A stretch of 32,000 nucleotides of DNA, taken from NCBI GenBank assembly GCA_024275415.1, contig JAJRZD010000019.1, positions 30,001 to 62,000 on the forward strand, read 5' to 3'. Below the pieces are notes generated by a model that was not told the DNA's origin, made no database searches, and saw only the letters and a list, made by a program, of their open reading frames with translations. This stretch comes from an archaeon. GTDB taxonomy: Archaea > Asgardarchaeota > Thorarchaeia > Thorarchaeales > Thorarchaeaceae. A program made the translations under genes and the position numbers. This document shows positions 26,935 to 32,000 of the stretch, piece after piece (position 1 is the stretch's first letter; each line of letters begins with the position of its first letter).

Positions 26935-27092
26935 GAGCCCCTCTTCCCCCTGACAACCCCTTGTCCTTGCGTAAGGTTTAATTGCAAATTCTTCGCGAGT
27001 ACCTTTGCTCATGTCGAGTAGAAGCTTGTTATCACGGCTTCAGCAAGGTCGTGACTGAAAATCGCTCTGGCGAACCTCGACACATAGCAACG

Positions 27093-27099
27093 TTTAAAT
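27093..27099 (+). promoter_or_regulatory. Putative TATA box of the 23S rRNA transcription unit
   Basis: TTTAAAT followed about 25 nt later by a GC-rich, hairpin-dense leader leading to the 23S processing stem. Confidence 0.55.
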
Positions 27100-27416
27100 C
27101 CGCAGCCAATCTGGCTGCCGGAGCGCACACCATGTTTCCATCGGTGTGCTCCTGTCCAAAGTCCTCACCCGAGGCTCCGCCGAGAGGACCACCTCTTGTG
27201 CCACCGGCACAACAGGCCCTCGATGAGGGGATCCATTACGAACAGACCCCGCCGGGTCACTCGCAATGGAGGACAAGTCATTCGTCCGTCAGCTGATGCC
27301 GTGCATCACCAAGGCTGGTCGACGGGACTGCAGAGGATGATCGACAATCGTACACTGAGGTATATTGAATAGTTACAATCCTTGGACAACGCAGATTCTT
27401 TCTGCGCAGCAGGTAT

Positions 27417-27445
27417 TACTGTGCCGGGTGCATGAGTAAATTTGC
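27417..27445 (+). other. 5' strand of the pre-23S processing stem with BHB motif
   Basis: TACTGTGC-C-GGGTGCAT pairs with GTGCATCT-C-GCACGGTA (31317-31333). Central helix GAGT (27434-27437) / ATTC (31310-31313), each followed by an AAA bulge. Confidence 0.8.
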
Positions 27446-30020
27446 TATTTGCTGTATGACTGTTGGTGGATGGCTTGGTTGGCAAACCGATGAAGGGCGT
27501 GACAAGCAGCGATATTCCCTGGGTAGGCGCATGAAGCCTTTGATCCGGGGGTGCCCGAATGGGACTTCCTCGCATGGGTTAATACCCCATGTGGCTCCAG
27601 TGTCGCAGCTGGAGTGGGAACGCTCCGAACTGAAGCATCTTAGTAAGAGCAGGAAAAGAAAACAATAGTGATTCCCCTAGTAACAGCGAGCGAACGGGGA
27701 ACAGGCCAAACCGAATCCCATTGCGAAGAGTGATGGGAGATGTGGTGTGTGGGCACGGGATCTATCGCCGACGGACCTAAGACGAAGTCCTCTGGAACGA
27801 GGCGGCGGAGAGGGTGAAACCCCCGTAGTCGTAAAGTCCGGGCGTTTCCTGTGTTCCCGAGTAGCGCGGGTTGGTCTTCTCGCGTGAACGTCCCAGTCGC
27901 AATCTGGGAAGCCTAAATATTATGCCAATCCGATAGCAAACTAGTAGCGCGAGCGAAAGTTGAAAAGAGCCGCGGAAGCGGGGTGAAAAGCACCTGAAAC
28001 CAACAGTCTAAACAAAGGATGCTGATTAAAAGAGTAGACTCTCGGCGAACGAAAACGGAGTGATCCGTGTGTAGGAGCCGAGACGATCGGATTAGCATCA
28101 TCCGTCTTGAAACACGGGCCAGGGAGTTCACGGACGTGGCGAGATTAAGACATGAAGTCGTAAGCGAAGGGAAACCGACAAGCCCGCAGCCTTCGGGTGA
28201 GGGGCGAGGTGTGATAAGTGCCTGTAGTCACAGCCGTGACACGAGAAACCAGTCGATCTTGGCGTGGGCAGGGTGAAGCCGGGCGAAAGCTCGGTGGAGG
28301 CCCGAAAGGGTTCTGACGTGCAACTCGTTCCGTTGACCTGCGCGAAGGGGTAAAAGGCTTATCTAGACTGGTGATTGCTCGTTCTCCGCGAAGTTGGTCG
28401 TAGCCAAGCCCCACTCGAGGTATCATGTGGTGTAGAGCACTTTTGGAAGCGCCCGGGGGACGTCAAGTCCTTCACCTTCCCGAAAACTCCGAAGCTGCAT
28501 GAACTGTAGACGGTGGGAGACGGGTGCCCGGGGTAAGCCCGGCAGGCCGAGATGGGGAGAACCGAGAGTATGGTTAAGGTCCCTAAGTGCCGGATAAGTG
28601 CGGTGAAGAAGGGAGTCGAGAGCCCAAGACAGTCTGGGGGTGAGCTTAGAGGCAGCTATCCCCGAACGAAAGCGTAACAGCTCACAGACCGAGGCTCTCG
28701 GCCTTGAAAATGGACGGGGCTCAATCCGGCCACCGAGACCATACAGCACACGAGTACCATCGTGTGATCTGGTAGCGGAGCGATCTGGTAGGGTAGAAGT
28801 GGGGCCGTGAGGTCCCGTGGACCTGCCAGATTTGATGATCCTGGCGGTAGTAACAGCGTAGCATGGTGAGAATCCATGTCACCGAAAGGGAAAGGGTTCT
28901 TCGGCGATGCGTCATCAGCCGAAGCTTAGTCGGTCCTAAGTGGCGTCGTAACTCGAGCGTCACGAAAGGGAATCAGGTTAATATTCCTGAACCTCGGAGA
29001 TACATTTCACGGTAACGTAAAGCCGGGTCTGTGACTCATCTGGACAGGCCAAACGCAGCTCTCGCTGTGTTTAACACTATAAGCCTACCGAGTACCGTAA
29101 TGGTGAGAAGTAGGTGAAGGGTGGAATAGCGGGTGGTCGGACACCCGTTTGGCTCATTCCTGGTGACCTTGAAAAACAGATCCGGAAGGATTCTCCGAGT
29201 CCGTACCCAGAACTGACACAGGTTCCCTGGCTGAGAAGGCCAAGGTGTATCCGGGTCACTCCTCCTGAGGGAAATCGGCCAATTAGCGGCGTAACTTCGG
29301 GATATGCCGTGCCTGGGTTAGTGCAAGCTTTCCTAGGTCTTAGTAACTCAGGGGTCCCAACTGTTTAATACAAACATAGCTGACTGCGAGCGGGAAACCG
29401 TTAGTACAGTCAGTGAATCCTGGTCTGTGCCTGTCTGTTAAAACTCAGAAATGGGTCGAAGCACAGGTTAACGCCGGGACTAACTATGAGTCTCTTAAGG
29501 TAGCCAAATGCCTTGTCGGTTAAATGCCGACGTGCATGAAGGGAGCAATGAGGTCCCCACTGTCCCCAGGAGGAACCGGGTGAACCCACACCATACCGAA
29601 CAGTGTATGTACGCCCAATGGGAAGAGAAGTCACTGCGGAGGTTTACTACGCAGTCTGTCGTTGCCATTTCTGATATCATACAGAGTATAGTCAGGAGCG
29701 ACGAAGCACGTTCTCCGGGACGTGTGGATGCGACCGTGTAATACTGACTATGGTATTGGGGATGGCTAACCTAGACCAAGCGAGTCTAGGGACACCGGCA
29801 GATAGGCAGTTGGGCTGGGGCGGCACAGGGCTGACAAGAGATCAGCCCTGACCAATGGTGGACTCAGAGGCGACGGAAACGTCTCGTCGAGATCAAGGGC
29901 ATAAGTCCGCCTGACAGGATCCCTAACAGCAACGGATCCTGGGACGAAAGTCTGGCCTAGCGAACGTTTACATGCCAATTGTAGGGCGGTAGACATGACA
30001 AAAAACTTACCCCAGGGGTA

Positions 30021-30811
30021 ATCTCTAGCCGGTCGTCAAAAGGCGAGGATAATAAATACATCATTGCCATTTAATGAGTGGAAAAAAATGGAACGTTGGG
30101 ACATATCAGATGATGAAGACTTTGAGAAGGAGAATCTGGATAGACCAGAAACTCTGGTTCGAAGGTACATTGAACAGTTGTTCAAGGGTACAGATCGCAT
30201 CACTGAAACAATGTTAGCCAGCGTAAACATAGCCTATCTCGCAGGCATTACTGAAGATGCCCACCTTGGCCAAGGTGGAAAAGAAGGATATGTCTTTGAC
30301 ATCGAGTCTAAATCAGAACGATGGCTCACTGACTTAATTATGCCTGCACTCAGACTTGAGATTCCTGAAAAGGAAATTAGAGTCAAACGACGTGGTACCA
30401 GACCTGAGTATCGTATTCAGGTATGGGACAAAAAACTCGTTGAAACCCTTCGAGTATTATTCGAAAGACCTGGAATAGTCCGTCTGTGGAGTATTCGAAA
30501 TCAACGAGCGTGGGTGCGTGGTTTTGCTGATGCTGAAGGATCAGCAACTCGTAACACGGACAAACAACCACAATTTAGTTTCTACAACCAAAACTTGGAG
30601 AAACTTAAGATAGCAGGCGAAATCCTTGAAAAAGATGGAATCCACTTTGGCTTCTACCTACCAAATGGTAGAGATGTGTGGCAAATGTATCTAACAGGAC
30701 GCGAGAATCTAAAACGTTTCCTTGATGGGGAAGCTTCTGGGGTGAGCCATCCTGAGAAACGTTCACGCTTACTTCAATTCCTTGCTGAGTAGCGCCGACT
30801 AGGGACCCTAA
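30021..30811 (+). mobile_element. Archaeal BHB-type rRNA intron (791 nt) inserted after A2450 (E. coli numbering)
   Basis: Removal restores GGGGTA|ACAGAGTCGTC. The intron ends form a 12-bp stem (30022-30033 with 30794-30805; 2 G-U pairs, 1 mismatch). Helix GGGG/CCCT carries TAA and AAA bulges; cutting after the second bulge base gives exactly these boundaries. The intron does not end in G, so it is not group I. Confidence 0.9.
30088..30792 (+). CDS. Intron-encoded two-motif LAGLIDADG homing endonuclease (first motif degenerate)
   Basis: AYLAGITEDAHL (30238-30267) and AWVRGFADAEGS (30511-30540). ATG at 30088 preferred over the TTG at 30064. Visibly more AT-rich than the flanking rRNA. Confidence 0.9.
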   Translation: MERWDISDDEDFEKENLDRPETLVRRYIEQLFKGTDRITETMLASVNIAYLAGITEDAHLGQGGKEGYVFDIESKSERWLTDLIMPALRLEIPEKEIRVKRRGTRPEYRIQVWDKKLVETLRVLFERPGIVRLWSIRNQRAWVRGFADAEGSATRNTDKQPQFSFYNQNLEKLKIAGEILEKDGIHFGFYLPNGRDVWQMYLTGRENLKRFLDGEASGVSHPEKRSRLLQFLAE

Positions 30812-31094
30812 ACAGAGTCGTCGCGGGCAAGAGTTCATATCGACCCCGCGGCTTGCTTCCTCGATGTCGGCTCTTGGTATCCTGGCGTTGCATAAGGCGC
30901 CAAGGGTGCGGGTGCTCACCGATTAAAACCGAACGTGAGCTGGGTTTAGACCGTTGCGAGACAGGTTGGTTTCTATCTATTGGGCGTGTTGGTCAACTGA
31001 CGGCAAGATGTTACCGGTACGAGAGGAACGTAATGTCGCGACCAATGGTGTACCCATTGTCCGATAGGGCAGCGTGGGGTAGCTAAGTCGTAAT

Positions 31095-31127
<33 letters not shown>

Positions 31128-31300
31128 AGACCGGAAAATAGTTGACCACTTAAGTGACGGTCCTACCGAAGGAGCGCGGGGCTGGTGACAGCGACGCGTA
31201 GTCACGAAACGAGGGTTCTGCTAGAAGAGCAGGTTAATAGGGCAGGGGTGTAAGTACCGAGCTCCGGCGAGGTATTCAGCTCACTGCTACTAATACCCGA

Positions 31301-31333
31301 GGCAAGCGAATTCAAAGTGCATCTCGCACGGTA
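31301..31333 (+). other. 3' strand of the pre-23S processing stem with BHB motif
   Basis: Complementary to 27417-27445; ATTC-AAA bulge at 31310-31316. Confidence 0.8.
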
Positions 31334-31452
31334 CCTAGAGCTGTAAGGGTTGTAAGAAACGTACGGTTGTAAGAGCGATCATCATCTGTGGGCCATCTAT
31401 TTTTGAAGGGGCCGACCGTCTGCTGAGCGGGGGCAACCGAATGTGAGGTCTA

Positions 31453-31465
31453 TTTCCTCCTTTTT
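31453..31465 (+). terminator. Pyrimidine/oligo-T tract, possible rRNA terminator
   Basis: TTTCCTCCTTTTT about 120 nt after the processing stem. Confidence 0.35.
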
Positions 31466-31658
31466 GAGTACAATTCTAGTTCACGATGGCTAATGGGTGT
31501 GTCTGGATAACACACGCACCTGAAGGTTGGGTCTTTCAGGTACCAAGATTCAAAGGGATGCCCTTGCACCACTTCAAGGACATCCCAGCCTCAAAGGCAC
31601 GTATCTCACAGGTATGCGATATGTTGATTTTCATGAGAAGCCATCCCTCAAATCTTAT

Positions 31659-31687
31659 CCGTTGCGAGACAGGTTGGTTTCTATCTA
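31659..31687 (+). repeat. Exact 29-nt direct repeat of 23S rRNA 30951-30979 (helix 93 region)
   Basis: CCGTTGCGAGACAGGTTGGTTTCTATCTA occurs at both loci; the flanks on either side are unrelated. Confidence 0.95.
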
Positions 31688-31716
31688 AGAGTTCTTGCCT
31701 ATCTAGGAGTTCTTGG
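31681..31716 (+). repeat. Two-copy 18-nt tandem repeat overlapping the end of the rRNA copy
   Basis: CTATCTAAGAGTTCTTGC followed by CTATCTAGGAGTTCTTGG (2 mismatches). Confidence 0.85.
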
Positions 31717-32000
31717 GGGGTCATCAGACTCCACTAAGGGGTACCCAAGAAGATGAACTGTTCATTGTAGGATGGACATACGGCGGTCTACCCTTGGCGC
31801 AAGGCCTACTCTGAAGGAGGTCGAAAAGGTCTGAAACTCAGACCCACGGTGCCTCACAACCCAAGGATTGTCCTCACCGACGAGCTCAGACACAGGGTTC
31901 TTGCGTACAGTACTGATCCAATTAGCCCTCAAAGACGTGTTTACCAAACAGAGTCGTGAGACCGTGTTTCGAGCACTGGATGGAGACTACGAGGACCTCA

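Follow-up and report, generated by a model that had tools for sequence, protein, structure and literature searches.

A 29-nt exact copy of a 23S rRNA segment downstream of its own gene in a Thorarchaeota genome: a probable scar of illegitimate repair

The 23S rRNA gene of a Thorarchaeota genome is followed, a few hundred nucleotides beyond its end, by a second exact copy of one of its own internal segments, set in DNA that is otherwise not ribosomal. The presence of such an orphan copy raises the question of whether it marks the edge of a mobile element, is kept for a function, arose at assembly or is a by-product of DNA repair. The locus was analysed within a window of 32,000 nt (contig C122:30001-62000) of a MAG with 92.9% completeness and 4.5% contamination. 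The evidence presented below suggests that the orphan is probably a non-functional scar left in vivo by illegitimate, microhomology-guided DNA synthesis or joining.

The copied segment and its surroundings

A repeat search of the window showed that the orphan is identical to its source at 29 of 29 positions, lies on the same strand and is spaced 708 nt from it (Table 1). It starts 346 nt beyond the 3' end of the 23S gene, placed at 31312 by Rfam. The original prediction, which had described a perfect 29-nt direct repeat about 350 nt downstream of the rRNA gene and had considered a chance match unlikely in 32 kb, was borne out on all three points. A search for the 29-mer with up to three mismatches gave no match in 100 dinucleotide-preserving shuffles of the window and two matches in the real one. 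At the same tolerance, the whole 3.5-Mb genome (127 contigs) was found to contain two copies, both in the window; the further copy that had been proposed to be sought was absent.

Alignment to the annotated E. coli rrl gene assigned the source segment to E. coli 23S positions 2590-2618 and A2602 to window position 30963, in keeping with the claim that this nucleotide lies inside the segment. The Rfam structure line places the beginning of helix 93 (H93) at 30949-30950, two bases before the copied segment. The description of the orphan as a copy of helix 93 therefore held for most of the helix, including A2602, but the two basal pairs are absent and 12 nt beyond the 3' strand of H93 are added. 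The missing basal pairs and the additional 12 nt indicate that the copy was not cut along a structural unit.

The absence of rRNA homology on either side of the orphan, also claimed at the outset, was confirmed by two approaches. The rRNA models of Rfam gave no match at E≤1 in 27000-32000 outside the annotated gene, and local alignments of both orphan flanks with the whole 23S sequence scored no better than those of shuffles. A match of 12/13 between flank positions 31434-31446 and 30926-30938 was equalled by 47 of 300 shuffles and was discarded as a sign of weak rRNA similarity. A second rRNA gene or an rRNA pseudogene was rejected, as rRNA homology does not reach beyond the core match.

Table 1. 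Features of the locus in window numbering, from the 23S rRNA gene to the toxin-antitoxin pair beyond the window end
Feature	Position	Strand	Description
23S (LSU) rRNA gene	27442..31312	+	Rfam RF02540, 2403 bits, full length
LAGLIDADG ORF in the 23S intron	30064..30792		PF14528, E 6e-11; looks intact
Source 29-mer	30951..30979	+	within 23S gene; E. coli 2590-2618; 5/7 H93 pairs, loop, A2602 and next 12 nt
Native 3' trailer	31292..31432	+	3' strand of long pre-23S processing stem
Unique stretch U1	31433..31658	.	no relatives found; end is the orphan's left junction
Orphan 29-mer	31659..31687	+	exact copy of 30951-30979, 708 nt 3' of source
18-nt tandem duplication	31681..31715	+	1.9 copies, 94%; TRF score 63
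rve-type, IS481-like transposase fragment	31786..31910	+	HTH region only; HTH_32 E 9e-6
IS110-family transposase fragment	31891..32318	+	internal; PF02371 E 8.5e-11; passes window end at 32000
HepT-like RNase and MNT nucleotidyltransferase	32479..33055	minus	PF01934 and PF01909; C122:62479-63055

The 23S gene, its trailer and the question of function

The 23S gene is full-length and unbroken across its own 29-mer, and the source copy is an uninterrupted exon. Upstream of it the gene is interrupted at about E. coli 2449-2451 by an intron of ~800 nt (an 808-nt insertion in the Rfam model alignment), which carries the LAGLIDADG ORF listed in Table 1. The insertion region corresponds to window positions 29984-30821 in the peptidyl-transferase ring and is common to the same-genus genome G001; the exon at the insertion reads GGGGTAAC against the Rfam consensus GGGAUAAC. 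The 23S gene is unlinked, with neither a 16S nor a 5S gene found within the 32-kb window, and it is enclosed by a very long predicted processing stem.

The 3' strand of this stem is formed by the trailer, which pairs with the 5' leader (27300-27458) at -102 kcal/mol as calculated by RNAduplex. The sequence from 31313 to ~31408 is 75-78% conserved in the same-genus genomes G001 and G005. G001 (identical to L021) is the closest relative for the part of the 23S gene 3' of the 29-mer as well as for the part 5' of it. Since the trailer pairs with the leader, is conserved in the genus and adjoins a gene with the same nearest relative on both sides of the source, no element is enclosed by the two repeats; the DNA between them, from 30980 to 31432, is the native 3' end of the 23S gene and its processing-stem trailer. 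Two T5 tracts (31400-31404 and 31461-31465) follow the processing stem and probably end the rRNA transcript ~195 nt before the orphan.

The perfect identity of the orphan over a functionally central part of the rRNA, with a classical homing site in it, together with the presence of a LAGLIDADG endonuclease gene in this very 23S gene, could be taken to mean that the copy is functional, either as a decoy or secondary site of an L2593-type (I-CreI-like) endonuclease or as an RNA acting on H93/A2602. However, the intron of the resident endonuclease lies ~160 nt upstream of the source, and the target of that enzyme is elsewhere. The orphan carries a truncated H93 and is not conserved even within the genus. 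Folds of 31600-31760 on both strands were no better than those of shuffles (z-scores -1.4 and +0.5), no A/T-rich archaeal promoter box was seen by eye on either side, the ORF spanning the orphan is without homologues, and the orphan lies downstream of both T5 tracts. A functional role of this kind is accordingly judged highly improbable. The two functional options of the original prediction fared alike: nothing was found in support of a decoy or of an antisense guide. The copy is unique to this genome among ~300 relatives, and neither strand gives a significant fold. A LAGLIDADG homing or intron site was likewise rejected, as neither copy has an intron or an endonuclease gene and the ORFs around the orphan are without Pfam matches.

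The patchwork behind the trailer

The trailer is followed by the unique stretch U1, for which no match was found in the own genome, in 300 genomes of the phylum or in phage or plasmid records. No microhomology is seen where the orphan begins, at its left junction (31658/31659). The longest ORF over U1 and the orphan (31486-31737, 83 aa) belongs to no Pfam family and has no real homologue; its lone match in an exhaustive search, to a repeat protein in which a short APxGW motif was matched eight times, was judged spurious.

At its right end the orphan runs into the 18-nt tandem duplication. The first unit of the duplication opens with CTATCTA, the 7 nt in which the orphan ends, and this 7-mer recurs 18 nt downstream in a non-rRNA context, which makes it a candidate microhomology for a template switch. 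About 70 nt of unique sequence separates the duplication from the rve-type transposase fragment. The latter, 125 nt long, shows 78-92% nucleotide identity to copies on contigs C12, C127 and C106 of the same genome, of which the C12 copy encodes both HTH_32 and rve; the fragment is devoid of ~165 nt of the 5' end of the element and of the whole catalytic domain. The three copies (C12:18823-19737, C127:43927-44650 and C106:18267-18502) are diverged (78-84% at the nucleotide level) and have a common left end starting with TGTAAGGTAACAA, and those on C127 and C106 appear to be frameshifted or truncated.

The IS110-family fragment that follows retains 428 nt, corresponding to nt 508-934 of a 1299-nt gene and approximately to residues 170-312 of 432. 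It is 90% identical at the nucleotide level to L054:708-1134, an intact 432-aa metagenome gene, and intact 432-aa relatives are present in Thorarchaeota. The fragment is without the DEDD catalytic domain (PF01548 is absent at the locus) and without approximately the last 120 codons. The rve-type and IS110 fragments overlap by ~20 nt (31891-31910), and both parental genes read CACAGG-n-T-y-CTTG-nn-CACAG at this place. Since this imperfect overlap of ~20 nt is found in both parental genes, the fragments were joined within an imperfect microhomology, and 31891-31910 is clearly a scar of microhomology-mediated deletion or joining.

Three further roles for the IS110 relic and its surroundings were considered and set aside. 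An intact IS110 element with a guide (bridge) RNA was rejected, as the catalytic domain is gone and the non-coding end is not common to intact copies. The relic as a source of a 23S-matching guide RNA was also rejected, the flanks of 11 intact relatives (L045-L055) being unlike the surroundings of the orphan. Finally, 15-19-mers in five contigs had pointed to a repeat element where the fragment ends on its 3' side, but the flanks were unalignable and the number of matches fits chance.

Beyond the window end the contig runs on for 14.6 kb. It carries the HepT/MNT genes, a toxin-antitoxin pair located between the insertion-sequence debris and a syntenic 95-aa gene, and then only housekeeping genes up to the contig end (UbiE-type methyltransferase, alkaline phosphatase, class-II amidotransferase, AsnC-type regulator and SAH hydrolase). 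No integrase, reverse transcriptase or nuclease was found in these 14.6 kb. A tyrosine integrase (PF00589) was absent from the whole contig, with matches in the genome only on C119, C116 and C43, and neither an RVT_1 reverse transcriptase nor Ku was found in the 92.9%-complete genome.

These data bear on the possibility that the orphan is the distal att repeat of a decayed site-specific integrative element that had recombined with the 23S segment. A direct repeat in the same orientation, beside mobile-element debris and a toxin-antitoxin pair, is what such an element might leave. However, native and not foreign DNA separates the repeats, displaced 23S 3' sequence was not found after the orphan (the right flank being at the level of shuffles), a third 29-mer is missing from the genome, and no tyrosine integrase is present on the contig, the remaining 14.6 kb included. 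The sole recombinase relic is an IS110 fragment without its catalytic DEDD domain, and the rve-type and IS110 families to which the debris belongs do not create 29-nt repeats. An att remnant is consequently considered very unlikely. The leading option of the original prediction, in which an rRNA-targeting element reaches beyond the window end and the orphan is its att core or junction, finds no support in the downstream DNA, where the proposed look for an integrase, reverse transcriptase or nuclease came back empty; its view that a plain integrase duplication is unlikely, in contrast, was upheld.

The composition of the patchwork also allows for an RNA-templated origin, in which a reverse transcriptase switched among abundant RNAs (23S rRNA and transposase mRNAs) and the resulting chimeric cDNA was inserted behind the 23S gene. 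All three fragments (23S, rve-type and IS110) are indeed short, internal, in sense orientation and on the same strand. Nevertheless, the three fragments would share one orientation by chance in 1 of 4 cases, the 92.9%-complete genome yielded no RVT_1 domain, and the identities of the fragments to their nearest relatives differ (100%, 78-92% and 90%), suggesting separate events. This origin is regarded as extremely improbable. Even when the two are taken together, there is very little likelihood that the 29-mer was kept for a function (as a cis decoy or target, or as an H93/A2602 small RNA) or that the patchwork records RNA-templated repair.

Relatives, assembly and origin of the copy

Comparison of the locus in relatives, which had been proposed earlier, showed that the orphan is present in this genome alone among ~300 sampled. 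An identical 29-mer was found in 27 other Thorarchaeota contigs, in a single copy each and always with 23S flanks; for 21 of these the stretch compared reaches >900 nt downstream. Among 300 sampled genomes of the phylum, every matching genome had one 29-mer match, located in the 23S gene. Counterparts of the orphan flanks were found in none of 40 relatives and in none of the 300 phylum genomes. With no flank counterparts and one copy per relative, the orphan is specific to the strain or species. The absence of changes within 29 nt implies that the copy is either recent or constrained; as the segment is invariant across Thorarchaeota, its identity cannot date the copy.

In G001 and G005 the similarity to the trailer ends at ~31388-31408, and different genes follow. 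In both this genome (G000) and G005 the same small gene of 95-96 aa lies a few kb behind the 23S end. The interval between the 23S gene and this small gene contains entirely different genes in G001 and G005 and is thus a variable island. An allele with an empty site was sought in several ways: orthologous flanks were not found in the 300 phylum genomes or the 27 Thorarchaeota contigs, and a 24-mer of the right flank, chosen to detect an empty site, gave no match in a metagenome contig collection. In the same collection, which may omit records of the own genome, a 41-mer over both junctions was likewise without a match.

Two of the Thorarchaeota 23S sequences, L036 and L039, have AAGGGGTTTAGA in place of GCTGGGTTTAGA directly before the 29-mer block; in L036, identity over the 134-150 nt before the block drops to only 72%. 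A further intron or insertion, with its end near E. coli 2581, may account for this difference. Several contigs were also observed to start or end within a few dozen bases of the invariant 23S block (L019, L029, L035 and L037-L039, as well as G211:C322, G194:C113 and G253:C239), with firm contig coordinates for G211, G194 and G253 only, as the L-numbered stretches may be 8-kb slices. The invariant 23S block is evidently a common assembly breakpoint in many Thorarchaeota MAGs.

This breakpoint lends some weight to the explanation that the junctions of the orphan are an artefact, produced by chimeric reads or by a wrong path through the assembly graph among co-occurring Thorarchaeota that share the invariant block. 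The genome is a 127-contig MAG with 4.5% contamination, contigs of many related MAGs have an end only tens of bases away from the block, the 41-mer over the junctions is absent from a metagenome contig collection (which may not hold this genome's records), and some assemblers use a k-mer size of 29, which also counts for an artefact. A de Bruijn path, however, cannot invent junctions; since both orphan flanks are non-rRNA, reads joining non-rRNA sequence to the 29-mer must exist on each side. Moreover, the 23S gene runs unbroken across its copy of the 29-mer, synteny with G005 holds on either side of the patchwork, and the neighbouring fragments are 78-90%, and not ~100%, identical to other sequence of the assembly, which fits old genomic relics better than mis-joined contigs. 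An artefact is therefore unlikely, although it is more probable than the att, functional and RNA-templated explanations.

The scar of illegitimate DNA synthesis or joining, put forward in the original prediction as a templated-repair option, is favoured on the grounds of the exact copy in cis, the patchwork and the microhomology at a neighbouring junction. The copy is short (29 nt), exact, in cis and in direct orientation; it ignores RNA structure and is not conserved in the genus. The shared order of the 23S end, a few kb of DNA and the 95-96-aa gene in G005 supports the contig across the region. The site forms the left edge of a stack of truncated mobile elements, which indicates that insertion, breakage and deletion have happened here repeatedly, and the rve-type/IS110 junction within ~20 nt of microhomology indicates that microhomology-mediated joining has acted at the locus. 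Microhomology-dependent joining is the break-repair route described for archaea that lack Ku, and the failure to find Ku in this 92.9%-complete genome fits. On the other side, no empty-site allele was found and the left junction is without microhomology.

From these features we infer that the orphan arose by a template switch and has no function. According to this scheme, a break would have been repaired, or replicated, in the variable DNA that directly follows the 23S gene, and a DNA end or a stalled nascent strand would have invaded, within that molecule, the 23S sequence lying 708 nt upstream. A 3' end with the complement of CTATCTA could have annealed to the same heptamer in the 23S gene, whereupon ~22-29 nt would have been copied before the strand switched back; the 18-nt tandem duplication may have arisen by slippage, in the same event or in one close by. 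A variant in two steps, in which a 708-nt tandem duplication of 30951-31658 was followed by the deletion of most of it, would be equally compatible. The template switch is the most economical history, and as duplication with deletion gives the same product, the two variants are inseparable here. The recurrence of CTATCTA could equally well result from a later duplication over an existing junction, which would void it as evidence of priming.

The probable repair scar carries little biological weight, being one more case of self-derived filler at a junction, though in an Asgard archaeon, where scars of break repair have hardly been described. It also calls for caution: exact rRNA k-mers may occur away from rRNA genes and can then lead rRNA-based binning, probe design and mobile-element searches astray. 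In this genus, the stretch that follows the unlinked 23S gene is a hotspot where mobile DNA inserts and decays. The literature searched yielded nothing specific on templated insertions in archaea or on orphan rRNA snippets, and to our knowledge no archaeal enzymes that make templated insertions have been characterised.

Among known systems, the att duplications of integrative elements resemble the orphan in that a segment of a stable-RNA gene is repeated downstream of the gene, near mobile-element debris. Unlike the duplications at tRNA and other stable-RNA genes, however, the present copies are separated by native DNA, with no integrase, displaced 3' end or element boundaries. The segment covers the rRNA positions equivalent to the I-CreI LAGLIDADG homing site (23S L2593), but, in contrast to that site, neither copy has an intron or endonuclease, the sole LAGLIDADG gene being in the intron ~160 nt upstream of the source. 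A close parallel is with the templated (filler) insertions of alt-EJ and FoSTeS-MMBIR, which are likewise short exact cis copies in direct orientation at a rearrangement junction; the association of the orphan with a small tandem duplication and with microhomology at a neighbouring junction is also shared with scars of this kind. Typical templated insertions differ in having been described mainly in eukaryotes (Pol theta) and bacteria, whereas the host here is an Asgard archaeon, and the orphan shows a candidate microhomology at only one of its two junctions. The orphan can be viewed as real and non-random but ordinary, a further case of a known kind of rearrangement scar.
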